Position numbers and translations under genes: made by a program | Assembly: GCA_003568945.1 (NCBI GenBank) | Contig: BDIP01000060.1 | Coordinates: 1 to 35,224 of the forward strand | DNA length: 35,224 nt | Direction: 5' to 3' | From: Kipferlia bialata | Lineage: Eukaryota | Shown here: positions 6,101 through 35,224 of the stretch, piece after piece | How positions within the stretch are numbered: the stretch's first letter is position 1 | How the letters are laid out: each line of letters opens with the position of its first letter | Notes under the pieces: model-generated | What the model saw: only the letters and a program-made list of their open reading frames with translations | Told to the model about the DNA's origin: nothing | Database searches by the model: none

Positions 6101-9100
6101 GCATTCCTGATCCGGCTAGCAGGCGTGGAGTAGTGTCTAAGATAGGTGGAGAGACAGGGGTGGGTCTGTGTCAGGCAGAGTGTATGGGCTGGCTGGATGA
6201 GGCAGCAGGAGCCGGCAAGACATCTGACGTCACTGGTATGGTTGTCGCTAGAAACAGAGCCTACTCTGAGAACGCCCCTGCCCTACTGATGTGTATATGG
6301 GCCAAGGTATTGATAGTGTGCACAACCATACATACATATTACATCTCCCGATACTGTCACTGACCCAGGTTCCGATCATCATCATTGGAGAGCCCGGTAC
6401 CTCCAAGTCCCTAGCCTTGAGGGTCTGCTATGAGTTCCTAGCGTCCGCCAAGAGCCACGAGGTCTTCCCCACCAGGGTATTGGAGACAGTCTATCAGGGC
6501 ACCACACAGAGTACCTCAAGTGGTGTACAGAGAGTGCACAGAGAGGTGCTGGCCAACGTTCCCAAGGTACTGTAGTGGTCTGTATCGCCACCTCTATTGC
6601 GTGACTAATGTGTGCACTTACCTCCAGGATGGGTCATCAAAGATCACTTCCATGTTCGTCTTTGATGAGCTTGGCCGTGCTGCCCAGGCCCCAGGCAACC
6701 CCCTCAAGGCTCTGCACTCTATCCTGGAGCCACACGGTGGCCAAGAGAACCTGACATTTGCCTTTGTAGGACTCTCCAACCACAGCGTAGACTCTGCACC
6801 CACATCCAGGGCACTGGTGGTATACAGGTAGGACCATGTATTAGGAAGGGTCCTGCTTGTCTTACAAGTAGTGTATATCAACTGTGGGCTGTAGTGTTAG
6901 ACTCCATTTACAACCAGGCTCGGGACCAATGATGGTCTCGCAACCACTGTACGTGACATTCTGCACAAGCGTGTCACCACCCACCAAGCGGAAGCACTGG
7001 CTTCGGCACATAACGCCTTGGTAGCCAAAATGAACACAGAACTGGAGAAAGGTGTCGGCAAGTCATATTTTGGACTCAGGTAGGGTGTGACGATTGTATA
7101 GTGTTCTTTTGTGGTGCTGATCTTCACTGACCTTCAGAGACGTCTTCTTCCTTGCCCACCGTGCTCTCTCTGAGGGTAACGTTGGTATAGGCGACCCCCA
7201 GACTAGGGCTGCCACCCTTGTCGCCAGGTGCTACAGCATAGGATACGCCAGCGAGAACACCCGCCTCTGCCAGCAGATGGTCGATGCCACTCACAGCATA
7301 TTGGCAAGCCTAAACCAGGAAGCTGAGTGTGGCCCCCCCAAGCCCCGTCTAACCTGGAGGGGATGGGGTAGGTACGCGGGTTACAGGCGCAGGGCAGATA
7401 CTGACAGGTGCACAGCCTACCAGGCTCTCAAGGACGCCTTGCAGGACACCCATGAGTGTGCTAGGTGGGTAGTATATTCGTGGATAGGGGTTCGACCTCC
7501 ACTCTGTTTGCAGAAGGAGCTAAGTGTGTTGGCTACCGCTCTATAGATGAGCAATGTACTGTTGACCTCAGGTACCTCCTTGTGCAGACTGAGTCCCCTG
7601 AGTTGATAGTAGACACTATCCTGAAGGAGGGTAGAGACCTGCTGGGTGCAGATAGGGGTATCGAGGTTCTGAGTGGGTCGCACTTCAGGGGAGACTCTGA
7701 CGTCGCTACCTCCATTCAGACCCTCTCTGCCCTCATTGAGGGAGCAAGAACCGGCAAGTGAGTTCAATACGTGTATAACTACATAATAGTTTCAATGATG
7801 TTGCTAATGTTCAGGCTAGTTGTACTGCTCCACCAGCAGCGTGTGCTAGACTGTCTGTACGATATGCTCAACAAGAACTATGCCCGTTTCAGCAACGGTG
7901 GCGTGACAACCATGAGATGCAGGTTCGAATCCCTCCCTCTCTCTCTTTCGATACATATCTGCCAGCATCTAACATTCAGGGTATCCCTCGGTAACTGTGC
8001 CGACAGCTTCGTTCCAGTCGCCCCTACCTTTAAGCTTGTCATCTGTCTGTCTGCCACTGAGGTAGCTGCAGAGGAGCCTGCTCTACTGCAGAGACTGGAG
8101 AAGGTCAGGCTGGACATACAGGATATGGGGTCTGTCGCAGAGGGAGCCAAGGCACTGCTGCAGCAGCCATCCAACTCCAAGGCTCTTCGGGAGGTAGTCA
8201 AGGCGGTGCCGAGACTGGGGTCTCTAGCAGAGGTGCACGATGGTTTGCTTTGGCTGCACTCCACAGATGGACAGACAGGGGAGGAGACTAACGGTCACAC
8301 TGCCAGTATCCTTGAGCTGGGCGCCTACTTAGTGTCACCCACCTTGCTCCTCACCCACACCCTTCGTGCCGCAGAGATGCGTTCCGGTCATAGACAGAGC
8401 AGGTCTCCACTCCTTGATGGATCTATGTTCCATGGGTGCGTGGACGTCCTGGACTTTGTCCAGAAGCTGCTGAGGGAGAGAAATGGGGGTGCCTTTACCC
8501 TAGGTGGCGTGCCCGTTGCCCTCTATCGCAGTGGTGTTGGCAGCATAGGGGGATCTGTCGACAACCTTGTTGATGCCGCAAGGGCAGCAGGGATATCCGT
8601 GACCCCACTTGTCGTGTCTGTCTATGAGAAGCAGAAGGACTTCAAGAACGCCGTTGCGCAGGTACCCCAGGGTGATGTCGTGCTGTGCCACTTGGGTTCT
8701 ATGACAGAGTTCATACCCCAGTGCCAGTCCATTTTGATGAAGAGAGAGGGACTGAGTGTGATAGCTGTCGATAACACCACTGATACCAACTCTATCAGGG
8801 TTGGTGTTGCCTCAGGAGTGTGTGTGGTGGACTGCCTGATCAAGCCCCAGCACCTACCCATTGAGTTCAACCCGATGCCGGTGTTGACTCTCTCCCTCAC
8901 GGACACGCCTACTGCTGCCGCAGATCATGCTGATCTACAGCTGAAGGGTCTCATAGAGGTATCTCTACAGAGAGGCCTACACGCTGCGCTATCTACAGTG
9001 GCGGCAGGAGGTGATGTAAAGCTGAGTCCAGAGAGGGCTAGAGACCTCTCGAGGTTTGTGTCCAGCCACGCTGACAAGCTGGCGTCTCTCTCCCTCAACC

Positions 9101-12100
9101 ATGTGAAGGCTCAGCTGCTGGCGCGGTACGGCTCTAGAGGTATCCTCAGTTCAACAACACTGGGTCTATACACCTCAGTGGTGCAGGCCACTGACGAAGT
9201 GCTGATGGCCGCTACCTGTGAGGCTCTGGTTCCTGTTCTGAGGCTCCTTGCCTGCCGGGGTCTTCTTGACGGGTACCTGGATGAGGACCCAGCCTCAGAC
9301 GCAGCACAAGGCTACGCTGCTGCGGTACTGGCACAGATAGGAGGGCTGACTGTGAGGGAGTACCATGGCGAGATAGTCAGGCACCCACAAGACATGGCAG
9401 ATGTGACAGCTGAGCAGATACGTGCGGCACACTTCCAAGAGGCAGAGACACGTCACACACTGGCACCACTTGTCGAGTGCGACATGTCAACCACACCAAC
9501 ACTGCTGATACACGCTGTTAGGACTACTCTCCTTGGGTCTCTCAACCTGCCAGAGAACATTGCTTCCCTCACTGACGCTGTGCAGTACACTGTCAGTGTA
9601 GCAGTGGAGGCACTCGCAGAGAGCTACCAGGAGGAGGTTTCCAGGGACGCACTCCTAGTCCTCTGCAAGGTGGCTCTCTCACAGCTCTCCCTTGCTGCAC
9701 TAAGGGTGTCCTCTCATGGGCTCTCTGGTGCAGTCAGTGCTGCTAGTCATGCACTGGAGGGCATGTCCCAAGACGCAGATGCATTTGGGTGTCTGTCACA
9801 GATGCTGGTCAGTGGCATAACCTACATGGGCTGTGAGTACTCCAGATTCGACCACACTACTCCTTCTGGGGCCATGGCACTTAGTACGTCACCTGCGGAG
9901 CTAAACGATGCGGTGGTGAGGTCTCTACCCGATGCCACTCTGAGTCAGCGCCTAGCCTTCATGCCAATCGGTGAGGTTGGTGATGAGAGCTACATGAGTG
10001 TGTGTGCCACAACATCCCCCGAGAGTTCTGACACTGCCGCCTGTCATGTCTTCACAGCCAGACTATGTGGGGAGGTTGGTGTGCGGAGTCTCCTGTCGGA
10101 TATCAGAGTGGTTGATGCTGGGCTGTCTGTCATGATTACCCATCACGCAGAGCAGGTGATCAGTACCGACACCACAGTGCTACTTGGTGCTGGAACCACC
10201 CACAATGACATCCTGTCTCGTGTTGCTGGTGTCCTGCTAGGAAACACACTCACAGTTGGATGGTCAGTGGCAGCTGCAGTGTTTAGAGTCATTGCTAAGC
10301 AGGCCAGTAGTGACACGGGGAGTGACCTACCTGCAGCAGCCCTAGCCACACTCTTCAACTCTAGCAGACTGTGTCAGATGGCATTTGTATGGCACTGCAG
10401 ACAGGGGAGAGAGAACGACACAGAGTGGGTGGAGACACGGGTAACGGCAGTGCTTGGGGAAGTTGTTGCATCCACTATCTTTGTCGGTAGCTATGTGGAG
10501 AGGTACCCTCTAACAGGGCTTGTTGACTGGGCCTTGCACTCTAGGCCTGCATTTGGGATAGGGTCTACCGGGGTAGACAACCCTGTGGCGCTCTTCAGGA
10601 GACAACTTGTCACAGCTACGAGCAGCGGAGACACCAACACAGGTCCTGATGATCTCACTGCACTTCATGACGATATAGGTCTTGAGGGTATTGCCCTCAT
10701 AGGTGAATTGGCAGGTTGGGACACTACAGCACCCGGCAGTCTAGTACATGCTGTATCAAGCAACCCCTCCAACCACCTGTTGCCCTTCGAGTGGCTGAAG
10801 GCTGAGTATGCCTTCTTTGCCACTGCATATAAGGAGGTGTCGGGGTCCTCTATCTATCTCTGGCGCTGCCCATGTGGGGGTATCCTGTTTGTAGGGGACT
10901 GTGGAAGAAACTCACACAACGTAGCTGGTGGCTTTGGGTTCCGAAAGTGTGACAGGTGCAACGTCAACCAAGCTGAGGCAACGTGTACAAGAGTGGCTCA
11001 CGGAACAGCACCTAGTGCCACTCGTGTAGCCAACAGTGTCTTCTACACGGGTGTGGAGAGAGGTTTCGTTGCCAACAAAGACACGGTGCCGCCTTGCGAT
11101 GGATCATTCGCGTTCACCTCCCACATGCGATCACACGTCCAGGAGACCATCTTCGTCAGATGTGTGCTGGCGGCTCTGCACCTCAAGGAGAGGTTACGGA
11201 GTGGGACCCTTGGGGCCCTCTCCGAGGAGGAAAGAGAGGTACTGGTGGGGCGTGTCAACATGGGTGTCGCTAGGATTGGAGACAAGCTTCTACCTCTTGT
11301 CAGGCGCACTGCTGACACCATACTGGGTCTGCCTGCCACAACTGATGTGTGTGCCAGGTTTGCCCAGGAGACAAGGCTGTGTCAGACCCTTCGGCTCTCA
11401 GATGCAGCAGCCCCCGTACACCCACCTGCTGCAGATACTGATGCCCCTGCGTTCCCTCTCACTGCCGCCCATGCAGTTTCTGCTGGCCTTGACACCAAGT
11501 ACGTATCACTACTGCAGCCCCAGACCCCAGCTCAGATAGTGCTGGGTGAGGCCTCTGCCGCACACAGAGGGGGACGGTACATGGAGACACAGGAGCAGGC
11601 TGCGGCGTGGTGTGAGGCCCTTCGTGTACTGCCACAGGTGCTCTCTCTTCCTAGGGTGGTGTTCCAGCCACTGAGGTACACCGCTCTCACTGCCTCACAG
11701 GCGGTGCTGGACCAGCCTCTACAGTCTGTGCTTCACAGCGTTGGGGCTGATGTGCCTGCTGCAAAGACAGCAGTGGATGCATGGAACACAGTGTCTCTCG
11801 CCTTCTTCACAGAGCACTTCCCATTCGTCGATGACTGTCATTCTGTGGAACTGAGAGATATCGACTGGGATGACATTAGCTTTGGAGAGTTTATGGCCTT
11901 TTGCTCTGACTGCGCCATCCCGGCTCAGGACCCGACTACCGACCAACCTACACGTACCACTGTCAGCAGTGTACTACGTGAGATGGTTCGTGTGCACAAT
12001 GCCATTGCACAGGCTATTGTACAGGAACTCGGTATCCAGGGAGTGACCCTGGAGACTGTCGGTGTGTCTGGATTCTCCATCCGCAACACCCCCTCAGTAC

Positions 12101-12870
12101 TGGATGTGTACTCGTTGGATGGAGTACCAGCCCTCTCCCGTGAGGCATCGGTGCTACTCTCCGGCACCCGTGTTCTGTCTGCCCTCCCCTCGCTTGTTCT
12201 CATAGATGATGCAGAAGCAGCCCTGGAGATCAAGAGGTCAGGGGGCACTGGCAGCCTGCAGTGGGTACAGAACTATGAGGGGTATGATGACATCCCACGG
12301 CATGTGCCTTTCCTCCGGTGCGAGGAGAGCATAGATGCCATGCCAGTGGAATCCATAGGAAGGGCTGTTGCCGCTTGTTCTGCGGTGCAGGATGCCGTGT
12401 CTACCCTAGCTAGCCCTGAGGACGGATCAACATCTCTGAGGGCGTTCCTGGAGAGATGGGGAGTGTCACAGCATGTCACAGTACTGAGTGAGCACAACCT
12501 CTTGGGAGTGGAGGTACGGCAGGTACTGAGACTGACGTACGCCCTACAGGTCCGGCTAGGGTGGGAGAGCATCAGTACCAGGATTATGGAGGGAGTGAGA
12601 GCCAGGAGGCAATGGTCTCTCTCTGCCTCTCAGGCGGCAACTGTGGGTGCTCTCACAAGGGATGAGAGGGAGAGACTAGAGGGCATGGTCAAGGTGGTGT
12701 CACACCGCATGGACAGGAAAGAGATCCACAAGGGAATGCCTGGCCCTAGTGACACATACTGCACTACATACGAGCAGACAGAGGCGGGCGAGGCAGTGTG
12801 TGGGGTCCTTGATTCAGTATCTGTAATCGCACTAGTCATGCACTTTACTGGGATAGAGGGAGTGTATTAG
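178..12870 (+). CDS. RNF213-like: RNF213/mysterin-like giant AAA+ ATPase / E3 ligase with RZ-type zinc finger; 5'-partial, >=3821 aa
   Basis: Phase-consistent GT-AG exons: 178-266, 352-477, 594-984, 1050-1217, 1313-2856, 2969-3071, 3146-3200, 3271-5705, 5776-5927, 5976-6306, 6369-6566, 6628-6827, 6918-7079, 7138-7464, 7572-7757, 7815-7922, 7980-12870 (11,466 nt, a multiple of 3). Motifs occur in RNF213 order: AGQGKT, GDGGTGKT/LFFDEIN, FRVNPMPESM..DFGGL, VSLRD, GEPGTSKSLA/FDELG, YFGLRD, RYLL, CLYDMLNKNY, then an RZ-like CPCGGILFVGDCG..CDRC. No start codon is identifiable. Confidence 0.88.
10852..10990 (+). other. RZ (RNF213-ZNFX1) finger-like motif within the RNF213-like CDS
   Basis: IYLWRCPCGGILFVGDCGRNSHNVAGGFGFRKCDRC resembles the RZ pattern CPNGH-x3-G[ED]CG-xn-CxxC and lies in the C-terminal E3 region. 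Confidence 0.75.
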
Positions 12871-17393: not shown

Positions 17394-20300
17394 ACGTGGA
17401 TGTGTCTGCACATGTCGCATGGAAAGGCATGACCCACTGGCTGCTTGGTCTCTCTCTCTCTCTCTCTCCCCCTCCCCCCCAGCCTGTGTCTGTGACCATG
17501 GGTGGGGCCGGCACCAGTGGCAGGCTGGCATACTTCGTAGCAAGGTATATTTTCTCTAGGTTTCTCTGATCTATATTTTCACCTCCTCTCTTTCTGACCC
17601 AAAGGGCCTGCCTTCTTCCAGCCTTCTCTCTCTCCCTCTCATTCTGCTATCCTTCACCTAGCATCTCTGTCTACTATAAGAGTATGTATATGCCCTGACC
17701 CCCAGGTGTCTTACCGAGAGACTGGCTGGTACCGACGCTGCACCCTCCCTCTCCTTCCACTACCTGATAGCAGGGGGGGACAGGGCACTCGTCAGGGCTC
17801 AGGTACGGGTTGTGTATGTATATACATATATACTCTATGCATGTACACTAGTATACACCCCCCCCCCCAGGAGAGTGCCGAGGACAGCAGTGTCCTGGCA
17901 GTCCAGGACTATGCCAGGGTGGCAGCAGGCCCAGCGGCAAAGGCATACATCGGAATATCAGCAGGTGTGCTACTTAGATATATACTATATATATACTTAC
18001 TGGCCCTAACCCCTAGGCATGAGTGCCCCCTACGTGTCTTCTCTCTCTCTCTCTCTCTCTCTCTTTATGTATATATATATGTGTGTATATATATACTAGC
18101 ACTAACCCCTAGGCATGAGTGCCCCCTACGTGGCTGTGCAGGCTGTGGAGGCCATGCACCAAGGGGAGGGGGAGATACCAACACCTAGACATGTGTGCAT
18201 ATTCGGATGCAACCCTCCATCCCAGGTAGGCATAGATGTTAGTATACATGTATGTGCTGTATATCTACAGTGTGCACACCCCTCAGCCCTCACCCCTCCA
18301 GGCCAGGGCCATGCCCATCGAGTACCTGAGGACAGAGGGTGGGGAGGAGAGGGGGTTCAGAGACATCCTGCAGGAGCTGCTGACCCTCTCCCCCTCCCCC
18401 TCCCTCTCCTCCTCTGTCATCAACCCCATTGTCGCACCGGAGGGTATCGCAGGCAGCAGTAGGATGAAGGTGAGTATACATATAGATATATACTTGCTGC
18501 TGTTTGTATACTATCCCTCACTCTGCCAGGGCGGCACCTCGACCCTCATTGCCATGTATGCCGCCCTTCTCCCCCCTGTGCTACAGAGGCTAGGGGGTGC
18601 CGAGGCCTCAGTCACCTCAGAGCATGTGCTGGACGCTGTGGAGAGGGGGGTGGGTGCACTCTATGCGGCAGAGGGACATGCAGATGCCATGGCCACTCTG
18701 ATAGAGGGGGCAGCTGAGGCCCTGGCAGGAGGTATCCCTCACTCATAGATATGATATGGATTACAGTCACCCCCCAATCCCAGACCACTCCATCGTGTAC
18801 TGCTGTGAGGACATTGACGACTCAATCGTGGCATTTATCGACGCAAGGTACTCTATGTGTGTGTGTATAGCTACCGTCATTGTTTCTTTACAATACAGAT
18901 GTATGTATATCCATGGTGTTTGTGGATGTATTTGATTGATGACTGCTTCATTTCAGATTCATATACGCCATGTATAGATACAATTCTTTCAGGTTCGCAA
19001 TGTGCGTCGCATACATGCATACATAATCCATATTGATACCCCCTAGAGGGTACCCTCCACGTGTAGAAGTTGGTGTCATATGGATGTGGTCATTCATTCT
19101 ATATTCCATCACTCGCTCACCGCCAGCGAGTGCCCCCCCACCTTTGGCAGTGGGTGGCATGACGTCAAGTGCCTGATAGAGGGTGGGTGGGACAGGGTGC
19201 TGGAGGGCATGGGAAAGACAGAGGCAGAGAGAGACGGGCTCAGGGACTACCACCCGCTCAGGTACAGTCCAGTATTGATACTCCTCTACACTTCACTGTA
19301 TCTATGATTGATATGTATACTTTAGTAATAGTGGTAATTAGTGGAGTGTATGTATAAGTATCTCACCCTAGGTACACGTCTGGCGATGTCGAGGGAGAGA
19401 CCGCCTCCGTGTCAGAGGGAGACCTGGTGATACTGATACCACAGGTAGATATGTCCATATGCATCTAGGCCATCCTCAACCGATACTGACACCAGACCCC
19501 TGGGTGGGTCCCCCAGTGGCTGAGGGAGAGGCGCAGCACTGAGGCTGGCAGGAGTGAGTCCCTCTCTGTTGTGTCTCTGGAGATAGGTGTTGACACTGAC
19601 ATGGATGTGAGGGTATCGGTCAGGGCAGGTGCAGGAGGCGATACCCCCAGCGTGTGCTGCCCACCCCCCTCTGCCCTGTCTGCTGTGGTCAGACATGTCT
19701 GCACCAAGCTGTGCCTCAATGCTATCACGACAGGGGCACACATATGCCGCGGCAAGACACTAGGTGGGACACACAAACATACATACCTCACACGCAATCT
19801 CTCTCTCATTCCAGGCAACCGCATGATCGACCTATCTGTCTCCAACAGTAAGCTGTATGTGCGTGCCTGCAACCTGATCACTGAGATAGTGGGGGGGGCA
19901 GGCCTGACCCTTGGGGATGGCGAGGCAGAGGCAGCCCTGCTCAGAAGCATATACATCACAGACAACATCGAGGTGGGGGTCAACATTGGCCTACATACCA
20001 CATTTGTCATGCCCTCTCTCTCCTCCTATCGTTGGACCAACCTCATGCTGTCTCCCTCTCTCTCTTCTCCCCTCCAGCCCATGCTCTCCCTACCAGTGGA
20101 GGACCACATTGCTAAGGCAGTGCGCATGCACAAGGTATAGTGCCCAACCACTACATGTTATTCATTGTGAAGTGAGTATATACACTCTGTTGTCTGTCAC
20201 TATTTACTAGATTGGATAGTTAGTCCACAGGCTTTCTGCATAATGCCGTATTCCATAATACATATAGGAAGAATGGTTAATGGAGGATAGTGGGTGAATT

Positions 20301-20514: not shown

Positions 20515-20781
20515 AGACTCGATTGTGTGTATTGTGTGTTTAAAGGTCATGGCTTGAATAATTGTATTTGGGCTAAAGAGAGACCGAGTATACCATTTCA
20601 AAATGGAGCTATCATCCATCTCGTGCTCCTTCTCAGTGAGTGAGAAGCCATCCACCAGAATCTGGCGATCCCTGGAGTGTAGGGAGAAGGATGCTGCCAC
20701 AGCTACACCCTTCTCTCAAAAATCCCTACACGCTCCAATCATGACTTGACAAGTGAGACTTCTCCTCTCAGTATTCAGAAG

Positions 20782-23700
20782 ATGAGGGCCGCTCTGCTGC
20801 TCTGTCTGTTGATACTGGTCTTTGGGACCCTGTACACGAGTGCATCTCCTTCTGATGTCCTCGATGGACGTTCTAGCGCCTCAGAGAGCCGGTTTTCGAG
20901 GCACAATCCCTTTTCTGCCAGAAGAGGTGGGCAATCCGACGCCCTTCCCGACTCCGACCCTCTGCTGCAGCTGGATGATACCCCTGTACCCTCTACTAAT
21001 GTGAAGACAGAGGATGACGAGCCCCTGCCCTTCGATGGCGTCCTCCCCCTCCCCGTCTACTTCTCACCTGTTGAGGTGGGGGAGACGCTCCTGTATGTGG
21101 ACCTCATGGGTAGGGCAGAGGATTGGTTCAGGGTGACCTATGACTGTTATGGCGGCACCAACAACTGCAGCACCAGCAAGGAGATGAGTGTCACTGTCCA
21201 GCAGCCCTACACACCGATACTGGCCATATACCCCCAGGTACCAGCTCTACACGCTTTCCGTACACTGATTGTATTGTAGCCCACCTCACACATAGGGTTC
21301 AGACACTGCCACCACCACTCCTGAGCCTGTCTCTATTACGTTGGACCCTGAGACTGGCCTGTACACCGTCCCTCTCCCTACTGGCCTGGAGAGAGGCATC
21401 CTCGACATAGAGGTCACAGTCAAGGTGGGGGGAGTTTGTACTCCTTGTGTATCCACAGTTCCCACTTAGGAGTCCTAGCTGGTCATATACCCCTGTCCTC
21501 CCCTGTCCCCCCAGTCCCTGACCCCAGGACTGCACTGTCACCCACCCCGAGACTGACTCCTACCCCATCAGCATGGTCACAGAGGTGATGGACGTCACAG
21601 AGACACTCCAGACATACGTCTACACAGACACAGTCCCCTTCAACCACGACTCCTTGATCCATGGTGCGGCACTACTTACGATATTGTAGTCTACAGCAAG
21701 CAGTATACAATACATCGAGACTTGAGTCAAGGAAGGCATACTGCACCCTTATGACATTTCTTGGTACTAACTGCACCCTTATGTCCCACTTTTTGTTGTA
21801 TCATCATTCTAACCTCATGCCTTCCCTCCGAGACAGACTTCTGGGACGGGTCCTCTGTGTCAGTAGATGGTCTGTACGCCGCCTTTGGGGTCCCCTACAG
21901 GTACAATATTTGGTTTTCGGTTACTGTATCCCTCATTTCAGTTGCTATGGGTAAGGAATGCTACTGACACAGGTGGGAAGAAAGGTGTTACCACTGTAGC
22001 TACGTGCTTGACGAGACCTTCGCCGGTAGTGTGCATCTCTATGGCAGGCCTACCGCCATGGCCCCCTGGGCACTGCTGCAGACCATCACTCCCTCTGAGA
22101 CACTCTCCGGCACTGAGTTGCTGCAGTTTGGAACCTCTATTGCACTGCGGGTGGATGAGAGTGGGGGGGTGACCCTAGCCGTGACTGCGCCAGGTGCCCA
22201 GGGAGAGGGTGTGGAGGAGGGGCAGAGCGGCAGGGTGCTGGTGTACACCGGGACACCCGGTGCCTCCGTGCTGGATCTCTCTCTCTCCCTCTCGGACTCA
22301 GTCCCCTGTCCCCTCTCCACCCCTGTTCCGTCCTCCTCCTCTAACTCCGATACTGTCCTTCACATGGTACGTGTGATTGTTATACTCACATATATACCCT
22401 TCATGACTACACATATATCCGGAACCCATTCAGGCTGATTCTCATTAGCCTAATTGACCCACGTCTCCTCCATTCTAGATATGTGTGTACTCATCATCTC
22501 CGTCCCCCTTCCATGCCTACCTGTCTATCTATCTATCTATCTGTCTATCTGTCTATCTAACCCCCAGTCCATGACCGAGTCCCTCATCGCCATAGCAGAC
22601 GTGGCCTATGTCAATGCAGATGAGTCCTTAGGTGCTGTACACATGCTGCATAGGGATGAGGCATCCCTCGAGTGGGCTGTCAGCAGGAGCCCCAAGCCAG
22701 TGGACCACCCCACAGGTGCCCTCCCTCTCTGCCTAAGTATACCTCAGTATATCTACCTCCCTCTCCCGTCCCCCTCTCCCCCTTCATACTGTTGACAGCA
22801 GGTCTCTCCTTTGGCGCACACTGCTCCCTAGACCCCTCTGGCACTAGGCTGGCAGTCAGCACCAGTCTAGCGGAGGGCAGGTGCAGTATATGCCTTCTCA
22901 TCCCCTCTCTGTATATGGTTAAGTGTACACTGGTGACCACATGTTTGTGTGGATGTATGTACTCCAACATTCAGGGACGTGGAGCTACAGACGGCTGCGT
23001 ACCTCTTCACCCCTGTGCTGAGTGGGGGGGACGTGGTGTGGATGCAGCACAGTGAGATCAGTGTCACAGACATGTCGTGGATCGAGTACAGGACCGAGGA
23101 CTGGGACTATGAGCCATTCCAGGTGTCAACTGATGCGTACAGGTACAGTTCATCAAACCTTGGTGTTTGTGTCGATATATAGTGCTCTATTCTTTCCCTT
23201 CTACGACGCTTGCGAACCTCTGGGTTATCGGTCATCTCCACTACATATGTGTCTCTCTGTGACTGGGGCTAACTCATAGGTTTAGTGTGTCCGTCTTTGA
23301 TGGCACCCTGGCCCTTCTTAGTGCTGGGCTGGACCTGGACCAATACTCCAGTACCAAATCCTACTTAGACCTCCTGTCTATCGACGACGAGGGAGGTCTC
23401 ACCCACGTCTGGACTCTGTCACGCTATAGTGCCCTGCGGAGTGTGACGTTGGCAGAGACCTCAGACGGTACTCTCTATGCGGCATACTCTGGCTGGTCAA
23501 ACCAAGTCTCCCTCGCCAAGGTTGCTGAGAGTGGCAGTTACGTCGACATTGAAGGCACCAGCTACGAGGTATTCACCGGAGGTGACGTGTTTGCCTTCGA
23601 TGGAGAGACGGTGGTAGGGGCGGGGGGTAACAACCAGAGTGAGATCACCACAGTGGAGACAGGTTAGTGATGATGAGCTGCAGGGGTTGGCTAGTAATTG

Positions 23701-26700
23701 CATGTTGCAATCTAGCGTCGTATTGCATATACACTTTGACTCTGTGTCCTATTGGTTCATGTTACCCCTCACCCTCAATGTCTCCTCACCCCCAGGCCCT
23801 GACTACCTACGTGTTGTCGAGGTCACTGAGTATGTGCACAACCGATCCACCTCTACCATCGTGGCACACTTCCACGATGACTCTAGGGATGCGGATGACC
23901 AGGATGGGGGGAGAGTTAAGATTCAGCTGTGTGATGGCGATGGTGTGTGCTCTCGTGTTGGTTACTTGCGTTCCTTTGATGCTGAGGTGTCAATAGTAGT
24001 AGACGTGACGGATCTAGACTCCTCAATCTACGTGGAAGGTTCGGTATTCTATCTTCTCTCTTTCTCCATCTAATCGAAGGCACTGAAACGGTTCATCGGC
24101 ATTGTTCTCTCTGATACTCACACCCAGCATATCCGGAAAGCGCGTGTGACGCAGTATACTCCAACCGATATGTCCCTTCCATGAGGGTGTCTGTCCAGAT
24201 CAGGGAGGCTCGGCAGGTGAGACTACTGTGTGTTCCTATTGCAATGTCTAGTACACCTGTCTCGCTGTGGCCTACACCAGTACCCCCCTCACCCCAGATC
24301 CCCTCCGAGCTCCGAGTTGACCCCGTTGCCGCTGGTGCCGACACTGTTGTGCTCTCCCTGGTGGATGCAGGGGGGTGGACGGTGGGGTCTTCCCTCTCTG
24401 TCAGCCTCACCTCCTGGGACGGGGAGGACTATGCCTCTCTGGCCACATACGACCCAGCCACGGGTGCCTTCTCGGCTGCCATCCCTAGTGATACCCCTGC
24501 TGGCCCGTGCCCTCTCTCTGTGACAGTGACCCAGGATGGGGAGGAGGCCATCACCCTGGAGGCTAGCACCACTGTATACACCAACCTCGCCCTGTCCAGC
24601 CTCACAGTGACAGACCTACTCCCTGGGTACGACAATCTCCCCTACCTGACGGCCGCATCTGGGAACTGGGCAGCAACAGTCATCATGAGTGAAGACAACG
24701 GCGAACGCCACTTGCTCATGTACCGCAGGCCGACATTCCACATGCCTTACACGTATGAGCAGCGGATTCCGATTGATGGTGAGTGTCTAGTACTCCATAC
24801 AGTTTGCTGTGAGTTGTGTCTCTCTCACACCAGGCATGGTAGAGGACGAGGTATTCCCATCCGTTGCTCTTGATGGAGAGTGGATGGTGCTGTCTGTGCC
24901 CGAGCATGACGGGAGTACCGTCGGTGACTTAGATGTGACCGGAGTCTCTTTACGGTTCTATAAGGTTAACGCCGCGACTGGCAGGTGGGAGATGGTTCAA
25001 ACAGAGGCAGTACCTCAGTCCCATATGTCGTTTGCGAGTTTCGAATGGGTGAGTTACAAGTAGTGAGATGCTATCGGTACCCTGCTGTGTTTGCTGTAAA
25101 TATCATTATTCAGCCACAGTGTTTGTATGCACATTCTTCACCTAACATTAGGAACCCATACTTTACCAAGGAGGTGTTGTGCATGTGTCCATGGCTTCAG
25201 GGACTGTGGTCTACTCATCGGGTGTGGGTGAATCCAACTGTGCCCATGTCTACAACCTCACTGATGAGGGTGTGTGGGAGCACCAGCAGACGCTAGAGGT
25301 CTCTGACATCCCGTCTGGCCTTAGCCTTGGCCTGCAGTCCAGTCTCAATGAGTCTGGTACCCTCGTTGGCCTCTCCACCTATGTGAACAACGCCTCAGAC
25401 CTTGAGGACATTGGCACTACCATCCCTGGCGCATACGAGTTCTCGTATGATGCCGCATCTGGCCTGTGGACCCAGACGGGTGTTGTCACATCCCCCTTCT
25501 CAGAGACACTCTACACAGACGAGTGGGTGGTTGTGCACTTTGTCTCCATCCACGATGACACCATTGTTGTGACATCTGCCACAGAAATAGTCACCGGGGA
25601 AATCCTGGGAGTAGTAAGAGTGTATGACAGGACAGAGACCGAGGAGGGGACTTCATACACCCTCTCGATGACCCTACCTCAGAGCAGTACAGATGGCTAC
25701 TTCGGTATGGGGGCCAACGTTGTGATTACTGATACGATGATGGTAATTGACGACCTGTTTCACTGCAATGGCGCTGAGTCTTACGGGCTTGTCTCTTTCT
25801 ACGAGAGGCAGACGGCCGACTCTCAGTGGACTATGTTCTCTACATTGACAGCCGCTGATGTAGTTGCTGATGAGGATGTTGATGCCGGGGTTGAGTCGTA
25901 CATCGGCTTTGGCCTCTGCCACTCTGTGGACCCAGTATCAGGAGAGGATGCAATCATCATTGTGAGCATACTGTTTGGCTGGGGCGAAGAGGATGACGAC
26001 GACTTTGAAACTGCCCAGATCCACGTTCTCTCCCCGTCCCCCTCTCCTCTCTCTGTTACCTCCTATACCGACCCCCTCCTCGTGGGATCCAACACAGTGG
26101 AGGTGACCCTGCAGGATAGTGATGGCCTGCCTGTCTCTGACGCCACAGTGTCCCTGCTAGGCCTGGACTCTACATACACTCTGGTGTCTGAGGGAGACGG
26201 ATCCTACACCGTCGACAGTGTGTCTGTCTCTGACGATAGAGCCGACATCTCTCTCGTGGCCACATCTGCTACTGCTCCAGAGGCTGCGACCTACTTATAT
26301 GGAGATACGCCTGTTGTTAAGTACGACAGCCTGGTTCCTGTCTCGGTATCAGTGTACCCTAGTGTGCTGGTGCCCGCTGATGCCACCCCAGACTCTGTGT
26401 CTGTGCACTCTGTGTGTACTGCATCCTCCCTCCTCTACCTCGCTGTCCTCAACCAGTACGGGTCTGTGGTCGAGGGGGCTAGCCCAGTGACTGTCTCTAT
26501 CGATAGTGGTGCTGCAGCATCTGCCTCCTATGACGACACCCTCCATCTCTACACGGTGCCTGTCACAGCTGGGTCTCTCTCTGTCGGCACCCACCAGGCA
26601 GTCGTGTCTGTGTCGGACCCCACCTACCCTGCTATGACAGACACAGTATCCTTCCAGGTGCACGGAGTACTGTCATCCCTCACTGCCACTCCCTCTGCCT

Positions 26701-29700
26701 CCTCTTCCGTCGCTGGAGAGAGTAACTTAGTCTCAGTGGCGCTCAGTGATGCTGATGGTACCCCACTGGTACCTGGCAACCAGTATGAATGCTCTGTCAC
26801 TCTCTACTCCGACTACGGTGTCGCTACTATTCACGGTGGCTTGGGTACAGCAGTAACTGCCCACTGGGATGCTCGCGAAGATGCCTACGTGGCATCTGTC
26901 ACTTCAGTGTCCACTGCTACCACAGAGATCCTAGTCACTGCCTCCTGTTCTGCTGGGGTAGAGGCTGACTCTGTCTCCGAGAGTGTCCCCTACACGGTAA
27001 CTGCAGCTGCTATGGTCCTGGACTCCTGCACACTTACACTCGTGTCGGGGGAGAGGCAGGTGGAGGAGTACTGCTACTGGACATCCATCGACAACGAGGA
27101 GTGCCACCGCACTGTATACGCCGGCGAGGGCCTTGTCGTGTCTGCCTTCCTGTCTGATGAGTACCTCAACCCTATCACAGACAGAGACGTGCCTCAGCTC
27201 TACCTGGACTCGACTGATGAGTCCTACCCCCTGACCCTTGACACAGAGACCCAGGTGTACACATACACCTTCGGTGGGGCAGACCACACCTCTATCGAGA
27301 CGCTGACATTCGGTGTGACTGTTGGTGAGGGTGTGGTGCTAGGGGTGGAGGCGTACGATGTTGACGTCGTGGCCAACCCCAACCCTGACCCTGATCTGTC
27401 TGTCTTCACCTATGACACCACAGCTACGGTCGGTACATACATGCGGGTGACGGCTCTGTTCAAGGATCAGTATGGTAACACCATTCACTACTCGTACGTT
27501 AGATGTGGGTTCCTGAGTGAAGACACGTCGCGTAGGTACATGGGGTGGGAGTACATAGGGGATGAGACAATGCCAGGCACCTCCACCTTCTACGGAAGTG
27601 TGCGCGTCCTCAACACTGCTGGTGAACTTCCCATATACTTCGTTGGTTCCTACCGCTACTACGGGTATTACTATGACTACTATTACGGATCCCACTGGTA
27701 CTACGATGGCTACAATAGCAACTCCTACACGATGCAGCCTGGCACTGTCACCGCCACCCCAGGCCCTGCCTCTAGACTGACTGTGGACGAGCCTGCCTAC
27801 CTCAAGGCCGGGGGCGAGGTGTCTCTTTTGATGCACGTCACAGACTGGTACGGCAACACGGTTAGCGGCGAGACCCTCTCAGTATCTACTGAGAGTAGCT
27901 CCTCAACCGGCTCAGAGTGTGTGTCTGCTGGCGGTGCCTACACCTGTGACGTCACATACACTGTGGAGCCCCAGCGCGTTGCCCCAGTGTATGCCTGGTA
28001 TGACTCGAGCTGGCTCCCCCCCTATACCCTCCGTGTGGTGGGAGACGATGCCGATGGGGCTGCCTCAACTGTGTCTCCTGACAATGCAGTGATGGGGGCC
28101 GATGTGACCGTGGAGGTATCCCTGGCCTCGGCTAATGGCATCACAGTCCTCTGGGAGCCCAAGCACCCCCTGGTGTATGTTGGGTGGTCCTCTGACCTAG
28201 CCGATGCCACCCAGGCTGCATACACACCTAGCGTCAAGGGATGGCTGACGACAGTCACCGCTCCCGACAGTGCCGGCACAGACATGACAGGTGGGGGTGT
28301 ATATGTATATGTCTTTAGCATCACTCTCATTGATTCTCCCACCCCAGGCACCCTGCATGTGTTTGTCAATGACGGGGAGGATGGAAGCTCGGCCGAACTG
28401 CTCAAGACACACTCTGTGTCGCTGGAGGACCAGACCCCTCGGGAGTCCACCACAGCAGTCTTCCCTGCCCTGGCAGCTGTGGATACCTCCCAGAGGTACA
28501 CTGTACAGCTACGCAACATCCTCGACACCCTGATTGTCGAGCCCTCTCTGTCTGTATCTGTAGGATGGGAGTCCGAAGACCCCGAGACAGCTGTCTTCGA
28601 CCTTGGCACCGGCTCTTACTCTCTCTCTCTCATGGCCCCTCCCGATGCTGGAGAGATGCCTCTCGAGGTGTATGTCGACGACGAGCTGTTGCTGTCCCAC
28701 TACGTGACCCTATATGCCCCGCAGGCTGCGGCGTCTGGCAGTGCGGTTGAGGTGTCTGATGTGGACGAGGACTCAGGGTATGGAGAAGTGGTGGCCATGG
28801 CCGGGGACTGGACAGTGATAGCAGCCCCCCGGTATGGCGACAACGACTCCGGCAAGGTGTTCTTCATGGAGTCGACAGACGAAGGGTTCACCGAGAGAGA
28901 CGCCGTGACCCCCCAGACCGACACGGACTACGGCCTCTTCGGCTCCTCTCTCTGCATGGCCGGGGATGATGGTGCCTATGTCGCCTACATCGGGTACCCG
29001 GGGGCTGGGCAGGTCGAGGTGTACAGCAACGATGGGTCAGGATGGGTATACACCGCTGTGCTGGGAGAGGACGACTGGGTGGACGGGAACGGGTATGGTG
29101 ACAACCTCGCTTGCACCATCGATCGTGTGATGGTCGGGGCGCCCTCGGCATTCACGTACAATGTGCCCAACTCAGGTGCGGCATATGTGTATGCCTGCGG
29201 TGCCGGTACGTGTACCCTCCAGGCCCAGCTTGTGTCCAACCCTGTGGAGGGCTCTCTGCTGGGTACCGGTGTGGCACTGAGTGGTGACACCGCCTCGCTG
29301 ACCTCTGGGGGTGACGTGTCCCAGACCACGGTGTATGAGTATGACTCTGACCTAGAGAGGTGGGAGCTGGTGTCTGCCCTGCCCTATGGCGGGGGGGACC
29401 TCGCTCTGTGCGATGGGACGCTGGTGATAGAGACACCCGCCTTCCCTGATGGGTTTGCTGTCTTCACCGCTGCCTCTGGGTATGGGTCTCTGGAGAGAGA
29501 GGACTCCAGCGGCACAGAGACCAAGACCCTGCCGCTCTCTGCCAAGGACACTGCCGCCGACGCCCTTTCTCTCTCCCTCTCCGGCTCCACCCTCGTTGTG
29601 TCCAAGGCCAATGCCTCTACCAACATCGGCTCAGTCACAGTGTACAAGGAGAGCTCTGGCGTGTTTGTGGGGTCGCCCCCCATCCCCACCACCGGTTCTG

Positions 29701-31144
29701 AGCCGGCGCCAGTTGCCATAGATGAGAGCGGGAACCTGCTGGTTGGGTCGTCAGGTGGGCACTTAGGGCTGGATTATGCACACTATCTACATATCTACAT
29801 ACATCTCATACTGCTGACCCCAAGGGGATGACAGTGCCGGGGTGACTGCCTTCGACCTAGCCTCCCCGGCTGCGCTGGTGCTAGACACCAACCAGGTGCA
29901 TGCATCAGTATTCCATATACATCCTATGTAGATGTGCTGGTACCCCCTCACCCTAGGCCACCTACGTGCAGGGCACAGCGGATGTCGGGGTGCAGTTCCA
30001 CTTCATGGACACTCTTGGCGAGTCTCTCCCCCCTCTTGCCGGTGGTGTCTCCTTCTCTGTGGGCTCTTCTGCAGCAGTGACTGCCTTACCCCATGCCTCT
30101 CTCTCTGTGTATGATGTGACCATGAGTGTGCCTGAGGCCGTGGGCCACACCACCCTCAAGGCCGAGACAGCCGAGGACAGCCTGACCACGGGTATTGTCG
30201 TGGTGGCTGGGCCCCCCTCCCCCATCAAGTCGTCTCTTGTGGCACCCAGCGCCACGGCTGGTGCTGACACAGAGATCTCAGTCATGCTCCGTTCCTCCTA
30301 CGATGATGTCAACTACGATTCCCATGACGTCACCATCACTTGGACCTCGGATGCCGGTTCTGTCTCAGGCAGCCCCTCTATCGATGAGACCAGTGGGTTA
30401 TACGCCGTGACCCTGGCTGCTGGGACAGTGAGTGGGACCTCCACGGTCACGGTCTCTGTCGGTGACGAGCCCACCTTCCTCCAGACATCTGTGGCCATTG
30501 CCCCAGACACCCCGTCTGGAGACACGTCCTCTCTCTCCCACCCCGAGGAGCTACAGGCAGAGCAGACGGTGCGTGTGGTGGCTACTGTACACGACCAGTA
30601 CGGTAACACCTGTTCTGGCAGGGACGTCTCTGTCGCCATCAGTGAAGTCTCTAGCGTCGCTGCCTGGGATGCAGCAACCTCCACCTATGCCGCCAACATC
30701 GCACTGCCTGCCAAGGGAGACACCACTCTGTCCCTCATTGTAGACAGCGTCTCCCTCCTATCCGTTCCTGTGACTGTGGAGGGTGGGTCAGACCTGCTAA
30801 TCTACGCGATTGCAGGTGGGGCTGGGCTACTCCTGACTGTTGTCGTGGCCACCTGTATTGGGATGCGTTGCAGAAGGAGGAAGCACAAGGATGAGGTTGA
30901 CATGACCCCAGAGGAGGAGGTGGAGGAAGGGACTGTCGATGAGGCTGTGGAGGTGGAGCAGGAGCAGGAAGTGGGCCCTGTAGTGACTGAGGGCACAGAG
31001 GGTACAGAGGGTGTGGATGCCACAGACTACGAGGACACACGCAGTGACATGCCGGAGACAGGGGAGTATCGTGTAGAGTACCCCGTTGTGGTGGTACCCG
31101 TGTGTGTGCTGCCAGGCGGGGCTGCTGGCAATGGTCTTGTGTGA
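20782..31144 (+). CDS. Very large type-I membrane surface protein with FG-GAP-like propeller repeats and Ig/invasin/filamin-like beta-sandwich repeats (multi-exon, roughly 2,800 aa)
   Basis: Signal peptide MRAALLLCLLILVFG at 20782. FG-GAP-like repeats (GSSVSVDGLYAAFGVPY, FGTSIAL..LAVTAPG, YGEVVAMAGDWTVIAAPRY, FGSSLCM..YIGYPG, YGDNLAC..VMVGAP). Repeated D.YGN / V.L.D Ig-like motifs (KDQYGN, TDWYGN, HDQYGN). C-terminal TM helix LLIYAIAGGAGLLLTVVVATCIGM followed by RCRRRKHK and an acidic tail; stop at 31144. Not every internal exon boundary was resolved. Confidence 0.8.
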
Positions 31145-32221: not shown

Positions 32222-32512
32222 CTATTCCTCCTCATCCAGATGTGCACTCAGAGCAGTGGCCCACAGGTATGGGTCTCCCTCCACCAGCATGTACCACACC
32301 CTGTCAGGTGTGATGACACGCATGCAGGGCATGTCCTGAGAGGCAGGTGAAGGTGGAGAGAGAGCTATCTAAGAGAAGCCGTACAAGTCAACGACACCCT
32401 TCGTATTACGTGACTCTTCTGAGACGTAGTATCGCACCAGCTTGTCACTGAGACTAGTAGTGAACCACCTACGCTTCCAGTTCTTGCGCAGCCCTCCCTG
32501 CTTCACCATCCC
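32222..32512 (-). other. Pleckstrin homology (PH) domain, not in the ORF track
   Basis: GMVKQGGLRKNWKRRWFTTSLSDKLVRYYVSEESRNTKGVVDLYGFS*IALSPPSPASQDMPCMRVITPDRVWYMLVEGDPYLWATALSAHLDEEE*: it has KxGG..KNWKRRWF, YY, KG..DL, TPDR.WY and the terminal helix Trp. Confidence 0.88.
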
Positions 32513-32719
32513 CCTAGATGTCCAGCGTATCTAACCCGTCTGGCCTCAGGGCACTCGGGGTCAAAAGGAGCGAAGTTGAGTAGTGCGGGGTCGACAGGCA
32601 CGGACGGTCTAGCAGGGGTACGGTCAGAACTAGAACTGCTCTTTGAGCCGGGGCGCTTAGCATTCCCCCCAACCTGTGCACGGCTTCGCCCAGCGGCATA
32701 CTCCTGCACACCTCCTGCG

Positions 32720-33217
32720 GCTAGCATCCTGTAGAGTAGCTCAACCCCCTTACCACTCTTAGCAGATACCTCAGCAAAGTAGGCAGAGCGCTCCTGGGCA
32801 AGCGAGCACCCATCTATGTATGGTACCTCACGGGCTTTGGGAGTGGCGTCACACACGTCACTCTTGTTTCCGACAATGGCCAGGAAGGGGCTGTCAGAGT
32901 TCTTGGACACCCACTCAAGGTGCTCCCCAAGCCTCTTGAACGTGCCTTGATCTGTGATGTCATACATGACAATGACCACGTTGACACCTCGGAGGTACTG
33001 GCGGTTGATGGTGCGGAAACTATCCTGACCTGCAGTGTCCCACACTTGCAGAGAGAGAGTGGCACCAGGGGGGCCATATTGGAGTCTCTTGCTCTTGAAA
33101 TCGACACCGATTGTGGATATGTAGCCCGCTGCTGAAGGAGTTCTTGGCAAATCGTTCTATCATACAAGACTTGCCGACTGAACTATCGCCAATGACAATG
33201 AGTTTCAGCATATGGTC
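32720..33217 (-). other. Rab-family small GTPase domain
   Basis: G1 GDSSVGKS, switch I YISTIGVDF, G3 WDTAGQ, G4 GNKSD, G5 EVSAK. Split across two ORFs by a 1-nt insertion. No C-terminal prenylation cysteines. Confidence 0.92.
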
Positions 33218-33584
33218 ACACTCCCCGTCTCTCTCCCCCTGGTCTGTCTCCACTACACTACTGGCCTCGACTGCGTTATCAACCGGGGCGGCCAGTTGCC
33301 GCATGACAGTCTGTAGCTGTGACTGGAGAGCAGCCTGCATGTGGAGCACCTCCTGATGTCTGCCCTGAGCTGCCTCCTCTGCCACACTGAAGTGGGCCTC
33401 GACTGCCCCCAGGATACCAGCATACTCACCCCCTGCCTCACGCAGGGCTGCCTCTGCCTCCCTCACCTCCTGGCTCCCTCCCCTCCCCTCCATACGCATG
33501 GCTGTCAGTTGGTCACCCATGCGGTTGAGAGCGGCTTGCACAGCTCTCACCCCCTGTTCTTGCAGGAACAGAACACGAGAACAG

Positions 33585-34106
33585 GTATCCAGTGTCAGTT
33601 GTCCTGTGAGAGAGGTCAAGTCACGCTGCAGATCCATGAAGGCGGTGTCAGCCGTCTTGCAGGCTAGGATGCGTCTAAATGTCCCCATACCAAAATACTT
33701 GTCGAGGTAAGTACTAGCTCTCTCTCCACACAAGAGGTGAGGAGAGGGAGAGAGTGGCAGTGTTCAGAGGGGAGGTCACACACGGTCTTGTCTAGAGAAA
33801 CAATCTGAACTGTGAGGCTTGGGGAGTCCAGTTACCACATCATATATCACGTTTACTAGTTTGTGACCCTCATGTATTCACAAGTTCTTCATATGGTACA
33901 TATAATCATTAATGCGACTCCTAAGATAGTACTCAGTCGGGGCCTTTGCCGTCGTAATCTCATTCATACATGAGAGATTTACAATTCTTTGAATATTTGC
34001 GTACCTGATCCAACACGAGCACGCACTTGGCGTCTGCGTGTCTCTTGGTGTCGTGTCTGCTCTTGATGGCCATGATGGCAGAGGCCACCTGTTTAGCAGT
34101 GTCCAT
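33585..34106 (-). other. MLKL N-terminal (4HB/HeLo-like) domain
   Basis: Reconstructed MDTAKQVASAIMAIKSRHDTKRHADAKCVLVLDQ|IVSLDKTVCDLPSEHCHSLPLLTSCVER/ASTYLDKYFGMGTFRRILACKTADTAFMDLQRDLTSLTGQLTL keeps register with MLKL residues ~1-120 as recalled (K5, I14, R17, C28, L38, K40, L45, PSE, E-x-A, K-aromatic, R-x-L, F-x-D, R-x-L). Confidence 0.68.
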
Positions 34107-35224
34107 CTGAGTGGTAGCTGTCAGAGTTTCTATGTCTAGAGGTGAGAGCCAGAAACGCTGAAAGTGCGGATTTGGAGGTAACAACAATAATAATACACTG
34201 AAAGGTGGGGCCATCATGAGTAAGAGATACATGCTAAAGGGAAAGAGAGAGGGCCAAAAGGACAGAGAGAAGGACACATAGAAGATGAGGAGATGTAGTA
34301 TGCGGGGGAGGGGGGGGGGATAGAGAAATAGTGCTCTAGTATGAGAATGTCAGGGATAGAGTTGGTAAGGCGGTGGAAATACATTTCATGTTGTGTGAAA
34401 TGCCAGTGACACCAAGACCCAGGGCCAGACCCCTCACCCAATGCAATATATATATATATGCACGTTGCTTCTAACGCGAACAAACCACAAGGCTATGTAG
34501 GTATGGTAGTCTCCCAACATTGAGAGGTCAAATAACTATATCAGTACCATAGTATACTGACTGGTATGGCCATGCATGAGTCCTTGAAAGATCGTGATAT
34601 TACTGAAAGGAAGGAAACTATATTGACACCGATACCTTTTGGGACGTGTTTGTACCACTGGGGAAGCAAGGTCCCTTCCTTAGATCTAGACACGGAGATT
34701 TCAGTCCAAACTCTAGAAGGTTGCCAACATCAGGATCGGTCTGAGCAAAAAATGGAAAAGGGTCTAGGCTAGTCTTGGGAAGTCATATGTATGAATACTA
34801 CACAGATAAAGGCACCCTATACTGGACACATGGTGTTAGAAGGGTGTCCTGTTTCTAAGTGACCAGATACCTCATGAATCCGAAGATTGGAACAAAAATG
34901 AGCACAACATGGATAGCAACCGGATTCGGTGCAGTTTCGTCAAACTGAAACGTCCTGGCGTATCACATCCCTCTCACCATCTTAATGGTTGGCCCCTAGC
35001 ACTCTCCTGGTATCTATTCAGCTGATCGCATATGAGTCCTGTTAGAGTGAGTGATGTGTAATACGATAAGTGTGGAAGACACTCACACCGACAATTTAGG
35101 TGTCATTCACTCAACTGACATTTATGTCGGTACTACACTGCATGCTGCTAAATAGAGTACTTGACGGACTGCTGTGGTGGGACCTTGACATGAGCCTGGG
35201 TCAGGTGTTTGTGTGCTGAACCCT

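Follow-up and report, generated by a model that had tools for sequence, protein, structure and literature searches.

Near one end of contig BDIP01000060.1 of the free-living protist Kipferlia bialata, whose full length of 35,224 nucleotides was analysed (hereafter the window), a minus-strand locus at 32222-34106 appears to join a helical domain resembling that of MLKL to a PH domain, with a Rab GTPase between them. Does this locus encode one protein, and could a small GTPase act in it as the switch of a membrane-permeabilising domain? The original prediction had proposed both, following a single reading path through one GT-AG intron after correction of small indels.

Three-frame translation places the start codon at ATG 34106 on the minus strand, from which a 34-codon exon, an intron, the helical region, the Rab domain, a Ser/Pro linker and the PH domain follow in changing frames down to a final stop at 32224-32222. 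The transcript was traced in run X2, taken as RNA, which comes from the same sample as the DNA run. An X2 contig of 2119 nt covers 35197-34870, 34673-34636, 34135-34005 and 33804-32210, skipping three GT-AG introns, and agrees with the window with no differing letter and no gap; it behaves as spliced RNA, since two introns of the neighbouring gene are also spliced in it. The locus is laid out as follows.

About 34870-35197, minus strand: 5' exon 1, non-coding, with short upstream ORFs only; from the spliced contig
About 34636-34674, minus strand: 5' exon 2, non-coding; GT-AG joints in the spliced contig
34005-34135, minus strand: start-codon exon, amino acids 1-34; likely helix 1 and part of helix 2 of the bundle
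33805-34004, minus strand: GT-AG intron of 200 nt; joint 33804/34005 in run X2
33560-33804, minus strand: remaining N-terminal helical domain, likely an MLKL/HeLo/RPW8-type bundle; split by frameshift 1
33715-33729 (about 33726), minus strand: frameshift 1, in a GA dinucleotide run
33214-33560, minus strand: helical linker of ~110 aa, placed where MLKL has its brace; aligned with both paralogs
32720-33211, minus strand: Rab G-domain, G1-G5 present, Rab1-like switches; split by frameshift 2 between G1 and G2
About 33122, minus strand: frameshift 2, within the Rab G-domain
32535-32720, minus strand: Ser/Pro-rich linker; the paralogs conserve a short motif ahead of the PH domain
32222-32535, minus strand: PH domain carrying the basic motif; interrupted by frameshift 3 and an in-frame TAG; no prenylation motif at its end
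About 32511, minus strand: frameshift 3, within the PH domain
32371-32369, minus strand: in-frame TAG, inside the PH domain

The predicted coding intron (junction 34005/33804) is spliced in the X2 contig, and two further non-coding 5' exons, missing from the prediction, precede it. Because one spliced contig spans all three modules and two open-frame paralogs share them, the modules belong to one gene and not to separate genes. The helices assigned to the start-codon exon follow from a paralog whose MLKL_N match begins at profile position 32. The public model of the locus, GIQ79817.1 (332 aa, Kipferlia bialata), begins at an internal Met and places an intron at about 33165-33031 (minus strand) that removes switch I and G3, a stretch that the X2 contig retains. 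A short repeat (35176-35218) with ~10x the depth of neighbouring DNA contigs lies at both the transcript's 5' end and the contig's end, and transcription may begin within this repeat or next to it.

Elsewhere in the window, the plus strand carries a very large gene (1307-12870) with weak AAA+ matches in 3258-5729, for which PDB sequence searches gave no matches; a Cys-rich motif in its 1702-aa ORF presumably recalls the RZ finger of RNF213. One or more multi-exon genes at 20683-31144 (plus strand) encode a large surface protein whose Ig-like repeats give weak matches to Invasin_D3 and Big_1; this protein has a hydrophobic stretch followed by a basic and acidic tail, and the 3' end of its coding region lies in an 8114-nt spliced contig. 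The stretch 19490-20137 (plus strand) matches a GKRP-like C-terminal domain (E 8.8e-12) and, judged by this match, could be part of a GKRP/MurQ-type sugar-phosphate protein, notable in a bacterivore.

The reading path of the locus is interrupted four times. The small indels had been treated in the original prediction as errors to correct, and the in-frame TAG had gone unmentioned. All three frameshifts and the TAG, however, recur letter for letter in the spliced contig, which comes from a separate run, so the breaks are not assembly slips and the single corrected path has to be given up. Translation from ATG 34106 ends after 80 aa at a stop at 33666-33664, nine upstream ATGs precede that start in the spliced transcript, and the transcript has no open frame through all domains. 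The genetic code is standard: in-frame TAA and TAG are absent from five long ORFs found elsewhere in the window, one of which terminates at a TAG. In the material sequenced, this is a transcribed pseudogene, and a full-length protein is very likely never made from this copy. It is highly improbable that the gene is intact in the organism, with the breaks being assembly errors or with an open frame in a second allele or in other strains. This copy retains undamaged G1-G5 and PH motifs, implying that its lesions are recent, and contigs drawn from one sample, DNA and spliced alike, drop rare variants; yet all four lesions are identical in the separate run, and every sampled word of the stretch is present in the DNA run.

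The original prediction had suggested a search for intact paralogs of the same architecture, and K. bialata has two with open frames, GIQ83754.1 (549 aa) and GCA62393.1 (553 aa). The window path, written as 562 aa with X at the breaks, is collinear with both over more than 500 residues (E about 1e-96; 33% and 36% of residues identical). All three follow the order helical domain–linker–Rab–PH, and the N-terminal domain of the window copy is 50% identical to that of GIQ83754.1 over 60 aa. When the helical part was compared with 1.84 billion representatives (phmmer), 26 matches were returned, 22 of which were run against Pfam. Three are from K. bialata, namely GCA62393.1, GIQ83754.1 and the locus's own model GIQ79817.1, whose database names all hide the architecture. 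The remaining 23 were set aside: in 22 the match is confined to the Rab part of the query, and the last, a peptidase-S74 protein, is spurious. When the Rab piece was used as query against longer proteins, two of 1,339 candidates matched, one of them GCA62393.1; an EFCAB4B-like large Rab also came up with this query. Relatives outside K. bialata were not found by these sequence searches, which are weak for a divergent 110-aa domain. The first coding exon of GIQ83754.1 is probably missing, because its MLKL_N match starts at the point of the exon junction in the window copy and the 34-codon exon is close in size to the missing 31 profile positions; residues 1-13 of this model look like a translated intron end, with the match running from residue 14.

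Both paralogs are open at all four sites at which the window copy is broken. This bears on the idea that the broken frame is translated by programmed ribosomal frameshifting and stop readthrough, an idea that we regard as scarcely credible. The transcript is indeed spliced and present, and a perfect 15-nt inverted repeat has its arms at frameshift 1 and just after the TAG, but four events of different kinds would be needed with no common signal, and the nine upstream ATGs weigh against translation of this kind. Such 15-nt repeats are moreover not rare here, occurring in 9 of 67 equal-sized overlapping window tiles and in 8 of 300 Markov shuffles. The repeat pairs 33715-33729, the GA run of frameshift 1, with 32353-32367, an arm that begins one base past the in-frame TAG; as both arms touch lesions, a template switch may be one possibility.

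What kind of domain, then, is the N-terminal one? Against 24,736 Pfam models, MLKL_N, a hypothesis named before the search, is the only family that matches residues 1-129 of GIQ83754.1 at E up to 10. The alignment places residues 14-110 on profile positions 32-125 with 15.4 bits (E 0.013), below the curated cut-off of 27 bits, and in two of the three N-terminal stretches of the family Pfam gave no MLKL_N match. In the ESM Atlas, the features of residues 1-125 of GCA62393.1 lie nearest to clusters bearing MLKL_N, MCAfunc and RPW8, the best of which scores 0.91 with 174 shared features; MLKL_N is carried by 10% of the members of the top cluster and by up to 62% in other clusters. The ten best matches having a family all fall in one family or clan, an agreement that a third of shuffled proteins also reach and that is uncalibrated for protein parts. 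The best structural row for the same stretch is a plant NLR (TM 0.61, residues 4-115).

An AlphaFold2 model of the N-terminus, built from a three-sequence input, shows three of the four helices, at 30-53, 61-79 and 83-108 (pLDDT about 65-72; mean pLDDT 61), with residues 1-33 below pLDDT 50 and helix 1 without resolved structure. Fold searches with this mediocre model did not find MLKL, and they are not decisive because residues 1-33 were left unresolved. In amphipathicity, the first 18 residues do not stand out from shuffles, 25% and 12% of which score as high. The window's own N-terminal pieces match MLKL in no search, so that support for the predicted MLKL-type N-terminus comes from the paralogs, through the sub-threshold MLKL_N match and the Atlas clusters, and not from the window copy or the fold searches. 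Collectively, these comparisons make it likely that the bundle belongs to the MLKL/HeLo/RPW8 superfamily. The linker that follows it is helical at 126-215 of GCA62393.1 in a model of mean pLDDT 36, and at 124-145 in a better model.

As sequence matches, the Rab and PH assignments are secure for the family. Pfam Ras is found in the window in two frames, at E 7.8e-6 for the P-loop piece and 1.9e-30 for the remainder, and all five motifs G1-G5 are present in GIQ83754.1, whose Ras domain (residues 206-368) lies above the Pfam cut-off, as well as across the frameshift in the window copy. The complete Rab G-domain of the prediction is thus present, in split form. GCA62393.1, by its motifs, looks like a pseudo-GTPase: its P-loop is one residue short and DTAS replaces DxxG, so that the G1 and G3 consensus is lost. 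The basic motif is also absent from its PH domain, and because of both losses a simple GTP switch is not valid for every member.

Phosphoinositide-binding PH domains carry the basic motif K-xn-(K/R)-x-R. The corresponding K-Q-G-G-L-R-K-N-W-K-R-R-W motif was found in the window translation, as anticipated. The PH domain of GIQ83754.1 (residues 449-545) scores 34.3 bits against a cut-off of 25.1 and also has the basic motif. In the window copy, the first half of the domain matches Pfam PH at E 5.5e-4, under the cut-off, and the second half is 74% identical to GCA62393.1 over 43 aa; the predicted PH domain is therefore recognisable, but not as one uninterrupted frame. A C-terminal prenylation cysteine motif is absent from the window copy, GIQ83754.1 and GCA62393.1, bearing out the proposal that prenylation has been lost. 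Pfam gives Ras/Roc and PH only, with no kinase or pseudokinase domain, and no COR domain match after the GTPase in either paralog.

In MLKL, according to the available text of PMC10603135, brace helices restrain the bundle until they are released by a change in the pseudokinase and form a coiled coil, which clusters the bundles, and the membrane is permeabilised. HeLo and RPW8 domains are described in the available text of PMC12881547 as homologous and as also being fused directly to an NTPase switch. By analogy with the MLKL brace and with these HeLo/RPW8-NTPase fusions, we tentatively favour, as a possibility open to real doubt, that the open-frame members are Rab-switched, PH-targeted membrane-permeabilising proteins, likely with an MLKL/HeLo-type bundle. 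The helical linker would hold the bundle in check, as the brace does in MLKL, and the PH domain would dock the protein on a phosphoinositide-rich membrane, replacing the lipid anchor. The bundle would then be released and clustered once the Rab domain is loaded with GTP or its switches are bound by a partner, and would breach an endosome, phagosome or plasma membrane or make it leaky. The family is seen in one species only, and the membrane-damaging role is a candidate function; as the Goodbye-like domains illustrate, a shared fold does not establish killing (PMC9815663, available text).

A non-lytic role in trafficking is nearly as likely as that of a Rab-switched membrane effector, which makes it a serious contender though itself rather doubtful. 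Here the family would be unprenylated large Rabs held at the membrane by the PH domain, and the N-terminal helices would serve as an adaptor, tether or dimerisation module, whether derived from MLKL or merely a generic bundle with a coiled coil. A Rab5-like GTPase with a basic PH domain is a typical endosomal combination, and GIQ83754.1 combines a complete Rab5-like GTPase with exactly such a PH domain. Animals have large Rabs that contain coiled coils; no MLKL match reaches curated level, and helix 1 is not clearly amphipathic. On the other hand, two separate methods applied to two different paralogs both point to MLKL_N, and with one of three copies dead and one degenerate, the family would seem to fit fast-turnover defence genes better than housekeeping genes.

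The Rab domains themselves differ within the family. The best PDB matches are Rab1A for the window copy (best 11 rows), Rab5 and kin for GIQ83754.1 (best 21 rows) and Rab6 for GCA62393.1 (best 9 rows). The window copy has ISTIGVDFK in common with Rab1A, and in GIQ83754.1 both TIGAAF and the switch II stretch agree with Rab5, so the switch types are Rab1-like in the former, Rab5-like in the latter and degenerate in GCA62393.1. In a tree, the three family Rab domains nevertheless form one group (100/99) against 18 other Rab domains, which were cut by pattern from search matches and include neither an identified Rab5 nor a canonical Rab of K. bialata; left out were P0004 (the own model), the near-copies P0029 and P0030, P0017 and P0025. 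The three domains also have a two-residue insertion in common. Between G1 and switch II, identity to the window copy is 56% for the closest ordinary Rabs and 36-37% for the paralogs, whereas past switch II it is 39-54% for the paralogs and at most 40% for outside Rabs.

This pattern allows a further reading, an improbable one in our view, in which the Rab domain is an integrated decoy. It would bait a bacterial effector, by mimicking host Rab1 in the window copy and host Rab5 in GIQ83754.1, and binding, loading or modification by the effector would trip the bundle, rupturing the vacuole or killing the cell. A bacterivorous metamonad would thus maintain a necroptosis-like executioner family with Rab in place of the pseudokinase, PH for aiming, and Rab1-like, Rab5-like and dead switches as bait for Rab-tampering bacteria, the dead copy showing birth-and-death turnover; this would amount to decoy-based immunity in a unicellular eukaryote. 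The grouping of the three Rabs combined with a window G1-switch II region nearer to ordinary Rabs, the two distinct switch signatures and the member that looks like a pseudo-GTPase would all suit such a decoy. Only three sequences are at hand, however, the outgroup is restricted as described, and different switches may equally reflect different normal compartments.

The preferred reading, a Rab-switched and PH-targeted membrane effector, concerns an architecture that is real in three members, two of them open-frame, and apparently undescribed. Among the matches listed, a search of full texts outside subscription journals found no MLKL-like–Rab–PH protein described in titles or abstract openings. 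Neither "Rab" nor "pseudogen" occurs in the available main text of the K. bialata genome paper (PMC5874029), nor "GTPase" in the available text of PMC9815663. If the bundle is of an active MLKL type, the executioner module would extend to metamonads, with a new mode of control in which a small GTPase switch and a lipid-reading PH domain stand in for a kinase or an NLR. Follow-up is better directed at the paralogs than at the window copy: GIQ83754.1, with its complete Rab5-like domain, makes a direct test possible in yeast or liposomes, and the decoy model can likewise be tested through the switch surfaces, which differ among family members.

Compared with known systems, the family resembles MLKL, the executioner of animal necroptosis with counterparts in plants, in its N-terminal helical domain (a weak MLKL_N match), its helical linker and its nucleotide-binding-type switch, degenerate in GCA62393.1. 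The layout of bundle, helical linker and switch domain parallels the 4HB, brace and pseudokinase of MLKL (PMC10603135, available text), but Rab takes the place of the pseudokinase, a PH domain is added at the C-terminus, and the match lies below the Pfam cut-off. With the HeLo, HeLo-like, Goodbye and RPW8 (CC-R) effectors of NLRs, it would share the all-in-one combination of a membrane-targeting bundle and an NTPase switch (PMC12881547 and PMC9815663, available text), and the feature neighbours of GCA62393.1 include RPW8 and MCAfunc clusters. Unlike the fungal and plant NLRs, it has a small GTPase and not NACHT or NB-ARC, lacks sensor repeats and occurs in a fornicate protist. The G1-G5 motifs and switch sequences are those of canonical Rab1 and Rab5, from which the family differs in having no prenylation motif, in having the GTPase flanked by a helical region of 200 aa on one side and a PH domain on the other, and in a family-specific C-terminal half. 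A Rab-like domain behind a helical or coiled-coil stretch in a multidomain protein is also found in the large Rabs (CRACR2A/EFCAB4B, RASEF, Rab44) and in ROCO proteins; the K. bialata family differs from these in that Pfam gives no EF-hand, COR or kinase domain and in that a PH domain follows the GTPase.
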